In this document: piece by piece, positions 50,640 through 62,444 of the stretch | Position numbering within the stretch: the stretch's first letter is position 1 | How the letters are laid out: every line of letters begins with the position of its first letter | NCBI GenBank assembly: GCA_028279595.1 | Contig: JANQNK010000020.1 | Span: forward strand, 288,001-352,000 | DNA length: 64,000 nt | Reading direction: 5' to 3' | Origin: Thermoplasmatota archaeon | GTDB taxonomy: Archaea > Thermoplasmatota > JAKEGO01 | Notes under the pieces: generated by a model | Seen by the model: only the letters and a program-made list of their open reading frames with translations | What the model was told of the DNA's origin: nothing | Databases searched by the model: none | Made by a program: the position numbers and the translations under genes

Positions 50640-51275
50640 ATGGCGAACGGTTCCGATCGTAAGAAACAGATAATGGAAGTTACCGAGGACATGATCTGCG
50701 AGCAGGGCTACGACAAGACCACCGTCGAGGCGATCATCACCGAGATCGGGATAGCCAAAGGGACCTTCTATCATCATTTCAGGTCGAAGGAGGAGGCCCT
50801 GGACGCCATCGTCGACGACATCCTCGACGATATGAGGACGAACGTGGAATCCATCGTCGCGGACGGGGATGCGGACGCGGTCCTGAAGCTGGACAGGATA
50901 TTCCAGTTCTTCTGGGAGGCGACCTTCTCCCGTCAGAAGTTGTGGGACTGCATCCTCGAGGAGCAGAACGCATACTTCCATACGAAGTTCGACAACAAGC
51001 TGGCACGGCTGCTGGTCCCGAACTTCATGAAGGTGATCGAACAGGGTGCCGGAGAGGGTACGTTCGATGTTCCGGATACATTCGTCTGCGCGAACGCCGT
51101 GCTCGGTGCCACATTCTTCACTCCCCGGGAGAAACTAGACCAGTATGAGTACGATCCCGGACCCAACTACACCGAGAACAACTGCCACATCCTCGAGAGG
51201 ATATTGGGAGCAGAAAAGGGAGCGTTGAGGAACTGCCTGACGCGAGGGGTAGTCCTTGAAGGAGAGGAGGCTTGA
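50640..51275 (+). CDS. TetR/AcrR regulator
   Basis: QGYDKTTV..I....GIAKGTFYHHFRSKEE. Confidence 0.93.
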   Translation: MANGSDRKKQIMEVTEDMICEQGYDKTTVEAIITEIGIAKGTFYHHFRSKEEALDAIVDDILDDMRTNVESIVADGDADAVLKLDRIFQFFWEATFSRQKLWDCILEEQNAYFHTKFDNKLARLLVPNFMKVIEQGAGEGTFDVPDTFVCANAVLGATFFTPREKLDQYEYDPGPNYTENNCHILERILGAEKGALRNCLTRGVVLEGEEA

Positions 51276-54200
51276 AGATGAGATCTTTCGCGATATTGTT
51301 CACTTTCACCGCTTTGTGTGTGATGTTGACCATCTGCGGCTCCTCGGAAGCGGATACGATCATTGTTGACCCAGTCTGGGACGGGGCTGACTACAGCATG
51401 ATCCACGAAGCGGCCGAGAACGCCAGTGCTGGTGATACGATCCGCGTTCACGCCGGTACCTACGTCATCGTAGAGGGGGAGAGCGGGTGGTCGGCGACCA
51501 GTTACCCGATAATCCTGAGCAAGAGGATCAACCTGATCGGGAACGGAAGCTCGGACACGATCATCGACGGATGGAAATGGGTCGACCATGCGCATAACAT
51601 CCACGTCTCCGCCGGCGGATGCGTGATAGACGGATTCACCATCAAGGCCTCCTCCGTGCACCACGAGTTCGGCGGCGTTGGATTGTATGCGTCGAACACG
51701 AAGATACTGAACTGCACCTTCGAGAACAACAACTGGGCCATCAACTTCCTCGGCGGCAAGAAGGCGACCATCTCGAACTGCACCTTCATCAGGAACCGGG
51801 CCAACATAATGTGTTACAACGATGGTGGTGAGGACACCATCATCGGGAACACCTTCGAGGACTCCTACGTCTCATACACAGGCGATGAATCGACCTACGC
51901 CAACAACACGGGCGGCTCGATCTCTATCTCCGGGGACGACAACCTGGTACGCGACAGCCACTTCCCCTCCTCCAGCAGTGGATTGAGGATCGACGGGAGC
52001 TTCAACCACGTCAACAACAACACGATGGTCGGCAACGCACCAGTGGACAACTGGACCTACGGAAGGGGCCTGTACATCGCGACCGAATCCGACGACAACG
52101 TGATCGAGAACAACACCATTGCTGACAACTCCGTTGGCATCCACATCGCAGGCAGCTGGCGACATCCGACCCATGGATTGCTGAGCGAGCCTGCGGAGGA
52201 CAATGTCATACAATTCAACAACATATTCGGCAATGACGAAGGGATAGTCGCCACGACGAACCACGACGGCGATACCTTCGCCGACGACAACTGGTGGGGC
52301 GACGCCTCCGGTCCCAGTGGAGACGGTTTCAACGGGACCGGAGACTCTGTCAGCAACAACACTGTCGTGGACACATGGCTCGGCCAGGCGATGGACCTCT
52401 ACATCCCGCCGATCGCCCGTATCCTGACCCCGATGGGCAAGCACGACAACCACCCGATCGTGTGGAACGAGACCTTTCACATCGAAGGGTACGGTACCGG
52501 CGACATCCAGCGATACGTCTGGCGGAGCAGCATCCACGGTGAGATCTACAACGGCACGGATTCCTCTTTCAACATCAGCACGCTCGACCCCGGAAAGCAT
52601 ACCATTTCATTGAGAGTACAGAACACCGACGACGAATGGGGTCCCTGGACCAACAGGTACCTCTTCGTGAACATGCTTCCTGTGATAATCAAAGCATCGA
52701 TAACCCCGAACGCAGTCATGCTCGGGGAATCCATCACCCTGAACGTGACCGCAAAGGACTACGACGGCTACGTCAGGGAGCATGATTACTTCTGGGTCAG
52801 CAACATCAGCGGGGAGCTCACCCATATCTCGCTTCCCATGGATCTCGGCAATTTCACAAGGCACGCGCCCCAAGCCGGTGTACACACAGTTACCGTCACC
52901 GTCAGGGACAACTGGATGTTCATGAGCAAACCCTACAACCTCACTCTGATCGTCCAGCAGAGGCCGGTCGGTTACCTGGAGCCAGGTTGGAATCTCGTAA
53001 TCGTGAGCGACAGCAACCTGACCGTCAAGTGCCACGGAAGGGACCAGGATGGCGAGGTCGTCCAGTGGAGCCTGGCATCTGATATCGATGGGTCGCTCTA
53101 CAATGGAAGCAGCCTGCCGATACATGACGGACCCGTCAGCAAGTACATCAACTGGACGTTCGAGGGTCTCACGAACGGAGTACACAACATTACCCTCCTC
53201 GTGAAGGACAACGACGGATTCTGGTCATATCCCTACACCAGACCGCTGATAGTCCACGACAGGCCGGTAGCCACTATAGAGGCGATCCATCCGGATCCGG
53301 CCCTCGAAGGTGATTACGTCCAGTTCAATGGAAGCGCGGTAGATGATGGAACGATCGAGGTCTATGTCTGGGAGAGCAGCCTGGATGGAGAGATATACAA
53401 CGGGAACAAGTCGAGTTTCGTTACGTTCAATCTGTCACTGGGGGACCACATCATAACGTTCAAGGTCCAGGACGACAACGGCGCCTGGAGCCACGAGGTG
53501 AACTCCTCGATATCGATAACGGAGTCTCCTGTCGCGACGATTGTCAAGATATCTCCAAGTCCGGCCCTGGTCAATGAGAGCGTATCGTTCATCGGTGAGG
53601 GCCGTTACTCCAACGGCACGATAATCGCATATGTCTGGAACTCATCCCTCGACGGGGTGATCGGCCGAACCACGAACTTGACACTGAACAACCTGACCAA
53701 GGGGAAGCACAGGATATCCCTCACCGTAAGGGCCACTGGAGGGATATGGTCAGTTCCGAAGAAGAGGACACTGATAGTCCACGAGAAGCCCATCGCGGTG
53801 ATCGACTCGATCCATCCAGACCCAGGCCTCGAGGGCGACCCCGCCTACTTCGCGGGGCACGGGATCGATGACGATCCCATCCTGCGCTACGTATGGAGCA
53901 GCAGTATCGACGGAGAGTTCCTCAATGGTTCCGAGGATAACCAGACGACGTCCATGCTGTCCTTCGGGAAGCATACGATCCTGTTCAAGGTCCTCGATAA
54001 CAACGGCGCATGGAGCGACAAGGTAAGTATGACCTACTGGGTGAACGCCATGCCCATCGCCAGCATCATCACTATAGACCCGGACCCAGCGATCTTCGGC
54101 GAGAACACCACCCTCACTGGTGAGGGGAGCCACAGCAACGGGTCGATCGTCGGATCGAAGTGGACATCCGACCTCGATGGACTTCTGGATCGTGGAATGG

Positions 54201-56305
54201 AGATCACACTTGCGAACCTGACGAAGGGATATCACAATATCTCGTTCAGCGTTGTTGACGACAAGGGTATATGGTCGCGTGAGAAGTCGTACATACTGCC
54301 TGTCTTCAGCAGACCATCGGCCAGCATCGAGAGGATATCCCCGAATCCCGCAATGGATGGGGACATGATAACGTTCAACGGATCCGGCACAGGCGAACGT
54401 CCCATCTCGGCCCTCCAGTGGTGGCTGGACGGCGATTACCTGAGCTCGAATCCCGAGATCAAGGTACCTGACCTGGACGCAGGTGAGTACACTGTCCGAT
54501 TCAGGGTCGTCGACAATGCGGGTGTCTGGTCCGATGACGCCACCGAGACCCTCGTCATCAACGGGATCCCCAAGGCTGTCGTCGTATCCATCTCGCCCGA
54601 CCCGGCCAACGCCGGCGAGGTCGTCGAATTCACAGGCGGATACATCGACCTCGAGGACAACGTAACAGGCTTCCGATGGGAGTCGAACCTGGATGGTCTC
54701 CTGAGCGATCAGCAGGTGTTCAACACGACAGGACTGTCCAATGGGACTCACCGGATCACGCTCAGGGTCATGGACCATCATGGCGCGTGGTCGCCCACGG
54801 AGATCTCCAACGTCACTGTCAACGGATTGCCCTTCGCGAGGATCGTCTCGATAATCCCTTCCGTGGCGAACGAATCGCAGAAGATCAACTTCACCGGAGA
54901 TTCCATGGACTTCGAGTACGACATCGATGAGTGGAGATGGGTATCCAACTTGGACGGTCCACTCAGCGGAGAGATGTCGTTCACTACCGGCGAGCTCTCC
55001 AACGGGACCCATGTCATATCCCTGAGTGTCTTGGATGGCTACAATGTCTGGTCAGAGAACGTCACCAGGACCGTCATGGTGAACGGCCGTCCCCTTGGTA
55101 GGATAGGATCGATAACGCCCGAGGTCCCTAACGAAGGAGACAACGTGACGTTCTACGGCGGCTATCTCGACCACGAGGACCATGTGGCTGGATTCCATTG
55201 GGAATCCGATATCGACGGGGAGCTCAGCGATGCCGCCCATTTCAGTACCTCCAACCTATCCGCCGGTATTCACAACATCACCTTCCGGGTGATGGACGGG
55301 AACGGTCTGTGGTCAACGAACAAAACACGATCGCTCGAGGTCAACGGTCTACCCACGGCCCGTATCATCAACATCGATCCGTCCCCGTCCAGCGAGGGCC
55401 AGACAGTGAACCTGACCGGTGGATACACTGATCTCGAGAATGACGTTGTCGATTTCGAATGGGTCTCGGACATCGACGGTACCCTCGGCGACCTTCAGAA
55501 TGTCTGGATCGATGGCCTATCGAACGGGACTCACAACATCTCCTTCCGTGTCATGGACCATCGGGGCGAGTGGTCGGAATACGTTACAGATACATTGACC
55601 GTCAATGGGATCCCAAGGGCGAGCCTCACGGTGAACGCCCCGAGTCCGACCTACCGGAGGGATCTGATCGGGTTCATAGCCACGTATTCGGACGACGGGG
55701 CTGTCGTCGAATTCAAATGGCGGTCGGACATCGACGGTATGCTCAGCGAGAACCCTTCCTTCGAAACGGACGACCTCTCCGTCGGGACCCATACCATAGT
55801 TCTGAGGGTCAGGGATGACATGGGAGACTGGTCGTCTGATGCAACGATCTCGTTGCAGGTCCTCGAACGCATCTACGAGGTCGAGATCACCGGGCTCGAT
55901 TACCCACTGACCGCGAGAGTTGGTGATATCGTCACCGTGTCGGCTACCATCGAGAACACGGGTGAATTCACCATCGACGAACTCCGCCTTAGATTGACTG
56001 TGGGTGAGTCCACGATAACCGTCATCAAAACGGATCCCGTGCTTTCGGGGAATTCGACCGTGGCGACCTTCGAATGGACGGCAGTCCAGGGGAACCACAC
56101 CCTGGTGGCGCGTGCCGATGTCAACGGGGAACTGCTTGATATGGAAACCTCATCGGGCAGGCTGGTCGTGAAGGAGGCGAAGACTCCGACCGGAGATGGT
56201 GATGACGAATTCTCACCGGTACTGATGATCATCATCGGGGTCATCGTTGCCGAGGTCGCCCTTATCGCGTTCGTCGCCGTTCGGTGGATGAACATCAAGA
56301 AATGA
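51272..56305 (+). CDS. Giant surface protein: beta-helix, 13 PKD-like repeats, CARDB, TM anchor
   Basis: Repeats of W.S..DG...G.H.I...V.D..G.WS; overlaps the tetR stop. Confidence 0.87.
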   Translation: MKMRSFAILFTFTALCVMLTICGSSEADTIIVDPVWDGADYSMIHEAAENASAGDTIRVHAGTYVIVEGESGWSATSYPIILSKRINLIGNGSSDTIIDGWKWVDHAHNIHVSAGGCVIDGFTIKASSVHHEFGGVGLYASNTKILNCTFENNNWAINFLGGKKATISNCTFIRNRANIMCYNDGGEDTIIGNTFEDSYVSYTGDESTYANNTGGSISISGDDNLVRDSHFPSSSSGLRIDGSFNHVNNNTMVGNAPVDNWTYGRGLYIATESDDNVIENNTIADNSVGIHIAGSWRHPTHGLLSEPAEDNVIQFNNIFGNDEGIVATTNHDGDTFADDNWWGDASGPSGDGFNGTGDSVSNNTVVDTWLGQAMDLYIPPIARILTPMGKHDNHPIVWNETFHIEGYGTGDIQRYVWRSSIHGEIYNGTDSSFNISTLDPGKHTISLRVQNTDDEWGPWTNRYLFVNMLPVIIKASITPNAVMLGESITLNVTAKDYDGYVREHDYFWVSNISGELTHISLPMDLGNFTRHAPQAGVHTVTVTVRDNWMFMSKPYNLTLIVQQRPVGYLEPGWNLVIVSDSNLTVKCHGRDQDGEVVQWSLASDIDGSLYNGSSLPIHDGPVSKYINWTFEGLTNGVHNITLLVKDNDGFWSYPYTRPLIVHDRPVATIEAIHPDPALEGDYVQFNGSAVDDGTIEVYVWESSLDGEIYNGNKSSFVTFNLSLGDHIITFKVQDDNGAWSHEVNSSISITESPVATIVKISPSPALVNESVSFIGEGRYSNGTIIAYVWNSSLDGVIGRTTNLTLNNLTKGKHRISLTVRATGGIWSVPKKRTLIVHEKPIAVIDSIHPDPGLEGDPAYFAGHGIDDDPILRYVWSSSIDGEFLNGSEDNQTTSMLSFGKHTILFKVLDNNGAWSDKVSMTYWVNAMPIASIITIDPDPAIFGENTTLTGEGSHSNGSIVGSKWTSDLDGLLDRGMEITLANLTKGYHNISFSVVDDKGIWSREKSYILPVFSRPSASIERISPNPAMDGDMITFNGSGTGERPISALQWWLDGDYLSSNPEIKVPDLDAGEYTVRFRVVDNAGVWSDDATETLVINGIPKAVVVSISPDPANAGEVVEFTGGYIDLEDNVTGFRWESNLDGLLSDQQVFNTTGLSNGTHRITLRVMDHHGAWSPTEISNVTVNGLPFARIVSIIPSVANESQKINFTGDSMDFEYDIDEWRWVSNLDGPLSGEMSFTTGELSNGTHVISLSVLDGYNVWSENVTRTVMVNGRPLGRIGSITPEVPNEGDNVTFYGGYLDHEDHVAGFHWESDIDGELSDAAHFSTSNLSAGIHNITFRVMDGNGLWSTNKTRSLEVNGLPTARIINIDPSPSSEGQTVNLTGGYTDLENDVVDFEWVSDIDGTLGDLQNVWIDGLSNGTHNISFRVMDHRGEWSEYVTDTLTVNGIPRASLTVNAPSPTYRRDLIGFIATYSDDGAVVEFKWRSDIDGMLSENPSFETDDLSVGTHTIVLRVRDDMGDWSSDATISLQVLERIYEVEITGLDYPLTARVGDIVTVSATIENTGEFTIDELRLRLTVGESTITVIKTDPVLSGNSTVATFEWTAVQGNHTLVARADVNGELLDMETSSGRLVVKEAKTPTGDGDDEFSPVLMIIIGVIVAEVALIAFVAVRWMNIKK

Positions 56306-56856: not shown

Positions 56857-57627
56857 CTAGTCCGGCCTTAGTGTGCCAGCGAAAACCTGCCAGGCGAGCG
56901 CCGATTTCGCTACAAGGCTCAGGATGACATACATCCTCTCACCGTAGAGATAGTCCTTCCACTTGCCAACCCTGCGGTACTGGAGCATCATGTTGAGGGC
57001 GAAGCAGTTGAAGAATATCGCTATCGAAACGTAGATCCCGTACACGAAATCAGGAGGGCCTCCGTCCCCTCCTCCTGCACCGAGCAGATGGATCGCAATG
57101 ACGATCCAGGGGATGATCCCGGCGATCGACCCGATGATGAAAGGCGTCCAGTTGACCTTCTTCCTTTTGTGGTTCATCTGCTCCATGAGAAGGCCGAAGT
57201 AGATCATCGTCGCGTTCACGAAGAAGAGGAGGAGCAGTGTGCCGACGTCGTAGATCCCGGTCAGCATGGCGATCGCGACTATCATGATGGAAGCGCTGAC
57301 GGAGTACTCGTACCAGCGGTACGGGTTCATCCTCTTCTTGAGGTTAGCAACATACTTGTCGTATAGTACCGTTGCGATCAGGAAGTGAGCGATCGCCGAT
57401 ATGAAAAGGAATAGTGCGATCAGGTAGCCCAGGCGGACCTCGGCGATCGTCACGGATTCGTGGACGAGCCTTTCCGTCGTCTCGTCCAACTTCAGGAAAC
57501 CCCTGGTAATCGGCAGTGTGAAATCGTTGCTCAGCACCACCATCAGCATCCCCTGGATGGTGTGCAGGAAGCCCATTATCAGGTTGAACCTCTTCAATTT
57601 CTGGTATTTCACCTCGTCGCCTTTCAT
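56857..57627 (-). CDS. heR: Heliorhodopsin
   Basis: N...G.LH..Q, SAIAH, NPYRWYEYS.SAS.M, GE..Y..LSLVAKSALAWQVF with the retinal-binding Lys. Confidence 0.96.
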   Translation of the reverse strand: MKGDEVKYQKLKRFNLIMGFLHTIQGMLMVVLSNDFTLPITRGFLKLDETTERLVHESVTIAEVRLGYLIALFLFISAIAHFLIATVLYDKYVANLKKRMNPYRWYEYSVSASIMIVAIAMLTGIYDVGTLLLLFFVNATMIYFGLLMEQMNHKRKKVNWTPFIIGSIAGIIPWIVIAIHLLGAGGGDGGPPDFVYGIYVSIAIFFNCFALNMMLQYRRVGKWKDYLYGERMYVILSLVAKSALAWQVFAGTLRPD

Positions 57628-60352: not shown

Positions 60353-60829
60353 GTGCCAGACGAAGTGAACAGCATAAGATCGCGTTGCAACTCCAGACAG
60401 ATGGCATTCATACTCCTGGGACTAGTGGTGACGCTGATCGTCTCGGTCTCCATCTGGATTTTCATGGAGGTCGACTCGTCGGACCAGCCGTTGTACAGGG
60501 TCCTCTACCTTCTCCCGCATCTGGTCTGGCTATTTCCTATCTACCGGGCTTACAAGAACGACAAGACCATCAGTTCCATCGAGTTCTACGAGGACTATCT
60601 TACGATCAAGAGACTTGTCGAGAAGGATTATTCCGTTCACTGGATGGCCGTCAAGAAGATCAAGTACAAGGACGGACGCTCCTGCTTCTCCAAAGGCCTT
60701 GTAATAGAATTGAAGTCCGGTAAGAGCTTCGAGATGATATGCGAGAGGGAGGTCTTCGACGCGGTCATCAAGGAGTTGAAGAAGTTCCGGGTCCTCGAGG
60801 CCGAGCGAAGGAAGGCCAAGGCACAGTAA
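60353..60829 (+). CDS. Two-TM protein with PH-like tail
   Basis: IEFYEDYLTI...SVHW..VKKI. Confidence 0.6.
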   Translation: MPDEVNSIRSRCNSRQMAFILLGLVVTLIVSVSIWIFMEVDSSDQPLYRVLYLLPHLVWLFPIYRAYKNDKTISSIEFYEDYLTIKRLVEKDYSVHWMAVKKIKYKDGRSCFSKGLVIELKSGKSFEMICEREVFDAVIKELKKFRVLEAERRKAKAQ

Positions 60830-60832
60830 GCC

Positions 60833-60953
60833 ATGGGCCAGGGCGGATCATCGCGGAACCTTCGGTCCCGCTTGCCTTGGAATTACTTCACTACCAGAAT
60901 TTATCAACCGTTATTCCAAGATCGAACTGCGTTCGAATCCGCCGCATGGCCCA
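60833..60953. repeat. tRNA-Val 3'-derived element (direct and inverted copies)
   Basis: 60833-60848 is identical to 60977-60992; 60931-60953 is an inverted imperfect copy. Confidence 0.8.
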
Positions 60954-60977
60954 ACCAATGATTGATTAATTAGAATA

Positions 60978-61050
60978 TGGGCCAGGGCGGATTCGAACCG
61001 CCGACCACTGCCTTGTAAGGGCAGCGTCATAACCACTAGACCACTGGCCC
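60978..61050 (-). tRNA. tRNA-Val(TAC)
   Basis: GGGCCAG acceptor, CTGCC-CTTACAA-GGCAG anticodon arm, GGCGG-TTCGAAT-CCGCC T-arm; no encoded CCA. Confidence 0.97.
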
Positions 61051-61058
61051 ATTGCTGC

Positions 61059-62444
61059 TCAATGATTACCGTAATGCGTCTCTATGAACGCTTCCTTGAT
61101 GCGCTTCAGGTCCTCCTTCGGGAGGGTGCTCATCAGCTTCCATCCCAGGTTGAGCGTGTCATCTATCGACCTGTCCTCGTGTTCTGCCTGCGTCACGAGC
61201 TCGTTCTCGAAGAGGTCGGTGAACTGCAGATAGAGCTTGTCCCTGTCCGTTAAAGCCTCTTCACCGACAACAGCGATCAGTTCCCTGAAGTCCTTGCCCT
61301 CGGCATAGGCGGAGTACATCTGGTTGGATACGTCGTCGTGGTCCTCGCGGGTCCTCTCCGGTCCGATGCCGTGCTTCATCAGTCTGGACAGGCACGGAAG
61401 CACGTCGACGGGAGGATAGATTCCTCTCCTGTGAAGGTCCCTCGACAGAACGATTTGTCCTTCAGTGATGTAACCTGTCAGATCGGGAATCGGGTGTGTG
61501 ATGTCGTCGTCGGGCATCGTCAGGATCGGGATCTGCGTTATGGAGCCCTCCTTCCCGAATATTCGACCTGCGCGCTCGTAGATCGATGCGAGGTCGGTGT
61601 ACATGTACCCTGGATATCCCCGTCGTCCGGGAACCTCCTCGCGCGCTGCGGCGATCTCGCGGAGAGCCTCGGCGTAGTTCGTCATGTCCGTCAACACGAC
61701 GAGCACGTGCATGTCGAGATCGAAGGCTAGGTACTCCGCCGCTGTCAGGGCCATCCTCGGAAGGATGATCCTCTCGATGGCGGGGTCGTCGGCGAGGTTG
61801 ATGAAGAGAACGGACCTCTCGATGGCGCCGGTGTCCTCGAACTCGTGTACGAAGAAGTTCGCCTCCTCGGCCGTGATGCCCATGGCGCAGAAGACCACAG
61901 CGAACTCCTCGCCCTGACCCTTCACCGCGGCCTGCCTGGCTATCTGCGCGGCGAGGTTGTTGTGAGGCAATCCAGCACCGGAGAAGATAGGGAGTTTTTG
62001 TCCTCGTACGAGCGTGTTCATGCCGTCGATCGTGGATATTCCAGTCTGGATGAACTCCCGGGGGTACTCACGGGCCGTCGGATTGATCGGAGCGCCGTTG
62101 ATGTCCTTCCTCTCGTCCGGCACGATCTCCATCCCGTCGTCCAGTGGCTGTCCCGTCCCGCCGAAGACCCGTCCGAGGATCTCCTTCGAGACCCCGAACT
62201 TGATGGTCTCTCCCGTGAAGCGGACCGCGGTGTCCTTGACGTCCACGCCCTTCGTTCCCTCGAAGACCTGGATGACGGCCCTGCTCTCGTGGACCTCAAG
62301 GACCTGTCCGTGGCGTGTGTCGCCGGTCCCGGTCTTGATCTTGACGAACTCGCCGAAGAAGACGTCGTCGACGCCCTCGACGACGATCAATGCTCCGGAC
62401 GCCTCGATGACGCTCCTGTAGTCGATGTTCTTGCTCGTGATCAT
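61059..62444 (-). CDS. atpB: A/V-type ATP synthase subunit B
   Basis: [46 protein letters not shown]. Confidence 0.97.

Follow-up and report, generated by a model that had tools for sequence, protein, structure and literature searches.

How does a tRNA gene come to be followed by both an inverted and a direct copy of its own 3′ end: is the sequence behind it an RNA device that serves the tRNA, or a small element that came to lie there? We addressed this question for tRNA-Val(TAC), the sole TAC isoacceptor detected in a genome-wide ARAGORN list of an archaeal assembly (2.29 Mb, 86% complete). The gene lies in the 64-kb stretch of DNA that we analysed (C18:288001-352000), which is referred to here as the window. 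The original prediction had offered two readings of the sequence behind this gene, a processing switch or a miniature element.

Architecture of the Unit behind tRNA-Val

The features of the locus are collected in Table 1. The original prediction had described the segment behind the tRNA as complementary to the T-arm and acceptor end, and this description holds: in tRNA-Val, the complement of the antisense arm takes in the T-loop and the 3′ strands of the acceptor stem and T-stem, with perfect complementarity at G53-C65 (13 of 13 bases) and at the acceptor end (7 of 7). On a scale calibrated with non-cognate tRNA/trailer pairs from this genome, the antisense match scores 32 (99th percentile, 22), as does the direct copy (99th percentile, 29; 95th percentile, 21), and by this scoring the Val arm is the best-preserved antisense arm in the whole genome. 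The exact 16-nt repeat of the tRNA 3′ end and the three internal stems that had been reported are all present. The 16-mer, ATGGGCCAGGGCGGAT, occurs exactly twice in the window, where no third copy is found even at 3 mismatches; its proximal copy starts within the T-loop, directly after GTTCGA.

Table 1. Features of the tRNA-Val(TAC) locus, in window coordinates; sequences are given on the tRNA strand.
Feature	Position	Strand	Remarks
tRNA-Val(TAC) gene, intact	60978-61050	−	Rfam RF00005, 72.8 bits; ARAGORN 60977-61051
Proximal 16-nt repeat copy	60977-60992	−	tRNA A59-A73 plus one trailer base; ATCCGCCCTGGCCCAT
AT-rich spacer ATTCTAATTAATCAATCATTGGT	60954-60976	−	Present 3′ flank of tRNA-Val; 23-24 nt
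Antisense arm, TGGGCCA-TGC-GGCGGATTCGAAC	60931-60953	−	23 nt; starts 24 nt after A73
Hairpin 1, TCGAAC-GCA-GTTCGA	60922-60936	−	Fold-back turn, made of the T-loop palindrome
Hairpin 2, CTTGGAATAA ... TAATTCCAAG	60876-60920	−	Perfect stem CTTGGAAT.../...ATTCCAAG; aligned to helix 2 of model R1
Hairpin 3, GCGGGACC-GAA-GGTTCCGC	60853-60871	−	C-GAA-G triloop, as in most family members
Distal ("decoy") copy of tRNA 3′ end	60833-60848	−	Exact 16-nt repeat; pairs with the antisense arm, closing the unit
Convergent ORF, 158 aa	60353-60829	+	No Pfam match; stop codon 3 nt from the distal repeat

Reading along the tRNA strand, the sense arm of the unit restarts at hairpin 1 as GTTCGA, passes through hairpins 2 and 3 and ends with ATCCGCCCTGGCCCA. 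The distal copy and the GTTCGA of hairpin 1 together form a copy of the tRNA from T-arm to 3′ end, with hairpins 2 and 3 set between its positions 58 and 59. The unit totals 144 bp (60833-60976), with 128 bp between the direct repeats. Its predicted fold is a four-way junction, in which the antisense arm and the 16-mer form the closing stem (−54.6 kcal/mol; z-scores of −3.7 as RNA and −4.2 as DNA). Inspection gives TGGGCCA/TGGCCCA as the outer stem and GGCGGAT/ATCCGCC as the inner one; of the tRNA stems, 6-7 bp (acceptor) and 5-7 bp (T-stem) recur in the closing stem. The antisense arm can pair with either the tRNA or the decoy, as had been pointed out.

No gene of its own was found between the Val repeats, where the overlapping ORFs of at least 60 aa enter from outside or are likely spurious, and among Rfam families at 60700-61150, RF00005 (the tRNA itself) alone reaches the gathering threshold. 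The convergent ORF stops so close to the distal repeat that the 3′ end of tRNA-Val would, before insertion, have abutted it. Farther off in the window are a heliorhodopsin gene (56857-57627, −; PF18761, E = 3e-105), an adjoining gene for a 596-aa protein with LEA_2/DUF3712 domains, and a gene for a predicted surface protein of 1677 aa with NosD, PKD, Y_Y_Y and CARDB domains (51272-56305, +).

A Family of Units Follows tRNA Genes

In a k-mer scan of the whole genome, the 3′ ends of many tRNAs were found to recur 120-215 nt downstream of the respective tRNA. With tail-copy scoring calibrated on non-cognate tRNA/trailer pairs, 16 of the 41 tRNAs carry a cognate 3′-end copy 80-230 nt downstream, as a single unit or an array, and in the fold of each of the 16, an antisense segment located at +20 to +50 pairs with the tail copy. 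The units follow a common plan: a spacer, an antisense arm, hairpin 1 (GAACCC-loop-GGGTT), a long variable hairpin 2 (of which hairpin 2 of the Val unit is the counterpart), hairpin 3 (often GATGATGC-GAA-GCATCATC), and the tRNA tail from the T-loop on. A simpler type with the same plan and a single hairpin is also present. Units lie directly 3′ of tRNA genes, in tRNA orientation and often in tandem, and in arrays the distal units are more decayed. Their direct repeats begin in the T-loop and range from 14 to about 37 nt, sometimes reaching into the trailer; these direct copies are exact, while antisense arms are often bulged or decayed.

To place the Val unit, we used a covariance model, R1, built from 11 other units among which it was not included. 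R1 matched the Val unit end to end (60832-60953, −; model positions 1-130) with 21.9 bits and E = 2.4e-6, the next best match in the 2 kb searched with filters off reaching 4.9 bits; with default filters the model misses the unit. The Val unit is therefore a divergent but full-length family member. Its nearest relative is the unit behind tRNA-Glu(TTC), with 30 of 33 positions the same across GGGCCAT-r-CGG..GGATTCGAAC-GmA-GTTCGATC. That unit (L018 299-418; G000 C19:33148-33267, −, G000 denoting this genome) sits within an array holding two single-hairpin units. Its GGGCCAT mismatches tRNA-Glu and fits Val-type acceptors, and may be a carry-over from a Val-type locus.

Behind tRNA-Lys(TTT), a truncated unit made up of spacer, antisense arm, hairpin 1 and the start of hairpin 2 (G000 C11:19816-19892) runs into a coding region, and the distal tRNA-tail copy is absent. 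At G000 C7:44983-45098, ARAGORN reports a "tRNA-???" that is the 3′ portion of a tRNA-Pro, the first 28 nt of which are found immediately upstream; this is probably an intron-containing tRNA-Pro(GGG), and four fold-back units stand behind it. Some tRNAs also carry mirror duplications on their 5′ side, in which promoter/leader sequence and tRNA positions 1 to about 16-27 have a second copy 115-210 nt ahead of the intact gene, and some 100 nt of folded sequence separates the two (L009 175-201, G000 C1:145974-146000; L019, C5:36210-36232; L017, C14:87188-87203; and L085, a tRNA-Ala of genome G002). These may be the counterpart of the 3′ units. A three-hairpin unit behind tRNA-Ser(CGA) is apparently split between two contig ends (G000 C1:238930-238988 and C15:45030-45151), and several contigs of genome G001 begin within a unit (L032, L034). 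Assemblies seem to break at units, and such breaks, together with pseudo-tRNA ends that are open to mis-annotation, are their practical effects.

Compensatory Changes Maintain the Hairpins

In the 11-unit alignment, compensatory changes were found in 16 of 25 predicted pairs. Across 35 model-aligned matches, 95.7% of cells were paired, with double (compensatory) changes at 20 of the 25 pairs, in an alignment whose fit to the R1 model favours the structure somewhat. None of 500 shuffles reached the observed level, and slid controls gave at most 52%. The unit hairpins are thus maintained through compensatory changes, that is, by selection on structure.

Among paired cells read on the tRNA-sense strand, G.U outnumbers A.C by 11 to 2, an excess indicating that one strand is the folded form. 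GNA triloops closed by C-G, a combination that is unusually stable in DNA, occur in most hairpin-3 loops and in hairpin 1 of the Val unit. Together, the G.U bias and the triloops suggest that the selected form is the tRNA-sense single strand, whether as ssDNA or as RNA.

Unit Cores Are Shared across tRNAs and Genomes

Absence of the element elsewhere had been named as part of what would refute the original prediction; inspection of tRNA trailers in this and related genomes, the suggested check, revealed the contrary, with the element abundant in other places. With R1, 17 copies were detected in this genome, 7 in the sole same-family relative in the genome collection ("MAG: Thermoplasmata archaeon PMV_4.75"), one each in a same-order genome and two genomes of other families, and none in the other 96 genomes searched. 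A sequence-independent test of sampled tRNA loci recovered the same design at 7 of 21 tRNAs in G001, 5 of 14 in G021 and 9 of 16 in G058. In the same-order genome G002 the design is present at at least 7 of 24 tRNAs, mostly with a different core family and a copy at about +146. Units are present, in all, in at least four other genomes of the phylum. The tail copy at six G002 loci (L085, L091, L093, L099, L082 and L104) starts at +143 to +147, a regularity of position that points to a second, uniform unit family missed by R1.

Every R1 match adjoins a tRNA 3′ end and copies the tail of that tRNA in both orientations. The copying extends to local peculiarities: the Ala unit of G002 has the unusual T-loop TTCGAGT in both orientations, the His and Arg units of G001 include trailer bases, and Pro units carry the non-GGG T-stem GAG/CTC. 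The cores behave differently from their tRNAs. In the core (hairpins 2 and 3), the G001 His unit is 84% identical to the Arg(TCT) unit of the same genome, and the G001 Pro unit is 83% identical to the Leu(TAG) unit of the genome analysed here, but the orthologous Arg(TCT) units of these two genomes share only 56% identity. Cores are therefore not inherited along with their tRNA.

Occupancy is likewise patchy. The Cys, Lys(CTT), Thr(CGT) and Glu(CTC) genes are filled in this genome and empty in relatives; the reverse is true of Arg(GCG) and Val(GAC). At tRNA-Val(TAC) itself, G002 (whose tRNA is 95% identical) has a single-hairpin unit, G058 has two units, and six other genomes have none. The miniature-element reading is therefore backed at the level of the family, by multiple covarying copies located solely behind tRNA genes, by tandem arrays, by cores common to different tRNAs and genomes, and by patchy occupancy of orthologous tRNAs.

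We also scanned metagenome and genome collections with exact patterns. These scans returned nothing for the Val locus in its filled or empty form, and no empty-site allele, excised form or population polymorphism of the Val unit. A scan with a family hairpin-3 20-mer returned, besides chance bacterial hairpins, only the same-family MAG PMV_4.75; the 20-mer was not found in viral contigs.

A Candidate Insertion Cassette

We put at roughly 60% the probability that the 144 bp behind tRNA-Val are a non-coding, non-autonomous, DNA-level insertion cassette of a lineage-wide family. Att-type site-specific recombination, with the T-loop as its anchor, would have brought such a cassette into the tRNA-Val gene at GTTCGA^ATCC. 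The tRNA would have been rebuilt by the cassette's own copy of the last 16 nt together with a new 3′ flank, and the original 3′ end would now lie displaced 144 bp downstream.

How the cassette might move is a matter for a more tentative proposal, to which we give well under even odds: the substrate would be a folded strand, and a tyrosine integrase would carry out the step. Pairing of the antisense arm with the copy of the tRNA end would fold a single DNA strand into the four-way junction, whose closing stem would be a duplex replica of the end of the tRNA gene. This folded strand would serve as the recombination substrate, much as integron attC sites or the attP hairpin of CTX phage do, and one of the genome's tyrosine recombinases would act on it in trans.

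The assembly encodes seven tyrosine recombinases (PF00589), four of them beside tRNA genes, and none is linked to units. Cas1 (PF01867), reverse transcriptase, Y1 transposase, IS110, serine recombinase and rve were not found in this 86%-complete assembly, so that an enzyme encoded outside it is possible. A Cas12f1/TnpB-domain match is sub-threshold (21.9 bits; cut-off, 26.3), and the one DDE transposase present is unrelated and unlinked to units.

The genome also harbours larger integrative elements. A putative integrase element of 14.5 kb occupies tRNA-Pro(TGG) (G000 C7:7419-21947), with an 18-nt repeat that begins in the T-loop, as in the small units. A related 5-kb integrase element (G000 C14:112279-c.117300) lies between tRNA-Arg(TCG) and older small units. 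The left ends of the two are nearly identical (TTCCyCTCTA...GTTTTCGGCACTTTCAGA), indicating one integrase family at different tRNAs within one genome. The units have no similarity to the ends of this genome's integrase-bearing elements. Archaeal attB sites can extend beyond the tRNA gene, tRNA stem-loops mimic recombinase core sites, and related archaeal integrases switch among many tRNAs (PMC8371274). We found no published description of such units in full-text literature searches or in this review of archaeal tyrosine recombinases, which contains nothing resembling them.

A strict att model requires the cassette to bring the cognate tRNA end with it, and thus leaves the different arms on near-identical cores unexplained. 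In addition, the stem of hairpin 1 tracks the cognate T-stem, which a simple cut-and-paste model does not predict; the loop of hairpin 1 is conserved within the family. If the units are mobile, the concrete puzzle is therefore how their arms become matched to each tRNA. Candidate routes are a hairpin-templated correction that brings the antisense arm into line with the flanking tails, exchange of cores between resident units through their common T-loop sequences, or some other insertion mechanism.

A bolder and somewhat more doubtful version of the cassette reading would make the units a new class of mobile cassette, in which a folded single strand mimics the end of an essential gene as its attachment site, with archaeal tRNA genes as an integron- or CTX-like platform. 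Each new target may then serve as template for the arms, for instance through a hairpin-directed correction guided by the flanking tRNA end, and such re-templating would account for near-identical cores with tRNA-specific arms. Were this version true, it would offer a possible entry route for T-loop insertions or introns into tRNA genes.

Alternative Explanations

The strong structural covariation fits a functional RNA equally well, and the other reading of the original prediction, a cis-acting RNA module, is the alternative that survives best, although we consider it unlikely. On this model the trailer would be co-transcribed with the tRNA, the antisense arm would vie for the tRNA 3′ half with the 5′ strand and T-arm of the tRNA itself, and the decoy would release that half, timing or gating processing by RNase P or tRNase Z. 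Read-through is conceivable at the Val locus, where the spacer has no run of three or more T. For a 219-nt read-through RNA, a swapped fold, in which the antisense arm pairs with the real 3′ half of the tRNA and the decoy with the tRNA 5′ acceptor strand, is predicted at −98.8 kcal/mol, compared with −89.9 kcal/mol for cloverleaf plus closed unit; a switch is thus physically possible by a margin of about 9 kcal/mol, and read-through transcripts of units could misfold the tRNA. The covarying hairpins and the bias toward G.U over A.C on the tRNA-sense strand also speak for this model. Conversely, units are present at under half of the tRNAs, their occupancy varies among related genomes, and they have several unrelated core types. 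Tandem arrays with decayed distal copies resemble accretion rather than regulation. A run of four T, which would tend to end archaeal transcription ahead of the unit, occurs within the first 25 spacer nt at 6 of 16 unit-bearing tRNAs, compared with 8 of 26 unit-less ones, and there is no Rfam match.

An improbable alternative is that the units are non-mobile by-products, produced by duplication-inversion-duplication at the T-arm palindrome through replication template switching and followed by gene conversion between loci. Formally, a unit is indeed a tail, a spacer, an inverted tail and a tail with an insert. Its arms always fit the local tRNA, even its trailer, and the conserved T-loop sequences that flank the core could anchor gene conversion. 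This scheme leaves the origin and covariation of hairpins 2 and 3 unexplained, however, and it accounts neither for one core subfamily at different tRNAs in different genomes nor for several distinct core families with one design.

Still less probable is a stand-alone gene for a tRNA-like small RNA, in which the closing stem would be the acceptor/T-stem minihelix of tRNA-Val with three hairpins replacing the T-loop, the spacer would contain an AT-rich promoter, and tRNA enzymes would process the product. The extent to which the closing stem copies both tRNA stems is in keeping with this idea, as is the AT-rich stretch TTAATTAAT, which precedes the antisense arm by about 15 nt (10-18 nt). The spacers of other units, however, have no common TATA-like box at a fixed distance, and no convincing common promoter or fixed motif was found among unit spacers. 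Antisense arms that reach into trailer complements (G001 His and Arg, G058 Ala) fit DNA copying rather than acceptor mimicry, and the frequent decay of antisense arms beside exact direct copies also tells against an RNA gene.

Least probable of all is an ordinary att scar, the remnant of a large integrase-borne element from which nearly everything was deleted: the direct repeat does begin in the T-loop, as in this genome's real integrative elements, but the 128 bp that the repeats enclose amount to an entire member of a conserved family, fold perfectly, lack similarity to integrase-element ends and include an antisense arm that a deletion remnant does not explain.

Other origins were considered and set aside. 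Casposon, retroelement, IS200/IS605, IS110 and serine-recombinase readings were rejected on the enzymes, which were not found, the sub-threshold Cas12f1/TnpB-domain match being the one hit. A hairpin-end ("P-nucleotide") origin of the inverted copy is excluded because the spacers are not palindromic. A bulge-helix-bulge intron at 58/59 is not supported because, by inspection, the two junctions are not complementary. Lastly, a copy of the tRNA 5′ leader and 5′ strand was rejected as the source of the antisense arm because the arm of relatives continues into the complement of the 3′ trailer; the 8-nt repeat CAATGATT is within chance.

Comparison with Known Systems

tRNA genes are classic landing sites for integrases, and their known occupants are kilobase-sized and bring their own enzyme. 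The units described here are gene-less, measure about 120-150 bp and occupy up to half of a genome's tRNA genes; if mobile, they would be the smallest site-specific integrating units known in archaea. Several known systems share some of their features.

The complement of a specific tRNA 3′ end that each unit carries recalls the primer-binding sites of LTR retroelements, by analogy only: no reverse transcriptase was found, there are no LTRs, and in relatives the complement takes in non-transcribed trailer bases. Casposons are Cas1-driven transposons that enter the 3′ ends of tRNA genes with duplications of 14-15 bp, and they are known from a Thermoplasmatota relative. The units resemble them in target, in duplication length (16 nt at Val) and in forming tandem arrays. 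They differ in that Cas1 was not found in the assembly and in having no element-specific terminal inverted repeats, a variable repeat length and an antisense copy of the target.

Like MITEs, REPINs and the palindromic elements derived from IS200/IS605, the units are small, non-coding, multi-copy, strongly folding and apparently non-autonomous. In such elements, however, the terminal inverted segments are element sequence, whereas here they are target copies that differ for each tRNA. The duplication, at a variable 14-37 nt, contrasts with the short, fixed target-site duplication of MITEs, and no parent IS was found. The strict location and orientation behind tRNA genes likewise sets the units apart from all three groups, as does the failure to find a Y1/HUH transposase.

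The units also resemble the attL/attR duplications of tyrosine-integrase elements in tRNA genes (T-loop sublocation) and their integrase-less derivatives, among them cis-mobilisable elements and tandem accretions, where an intact tRNA stands at one end and its 3′ part is repeated directly at the opposite end. The Val locus shows just this arrangement, with the tRNA intact and a direct repeat identical at 16 of 16 nt. As in attL/attR, the T-loop, which is flanked by stems similar to a recombinase core site, is where the repeat starts, and identity can pass the end of the gene; newer insertions adjoin the tRNA, and this genome contains both tyrosine integrases and elements with similar repeats. 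Unlike such elements, the Val unit has 128 bp with no integrase gene or recognisable element remnant between its repeats, and the units contain, besides three conserved hairpins that covary, an antisense copy of the target, with one core at many different tRNAs and arms that are locus-specific.

Lastly, the units can be compared with integron attC sites and the attP(+) hairpin of CTX phage, a substrate of XerCD. Like these, the units are imperfect, bulged palindromes of about 100-120 nt whose stem rebuilds a duplex recombination site from one strand. In the units, too, direct and inverted sites lie about 90 nt apart, cassette-like arrays stand beside a fixed platform, and one strand is apparently the folded one, as judged from the G.U bias and the C-G-closed GNA triloops. 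The Val unit has none of the R″/R′ core motifs of attC (RYYYAAC/GTTRRRY) and fits attC by the general size class of imperfect palindromes alone. The platform is a tRNA gene rather than attI or dif, the cassettes carry no ORF, and the stem sequence is that of the target gene, changing with each tRNA.
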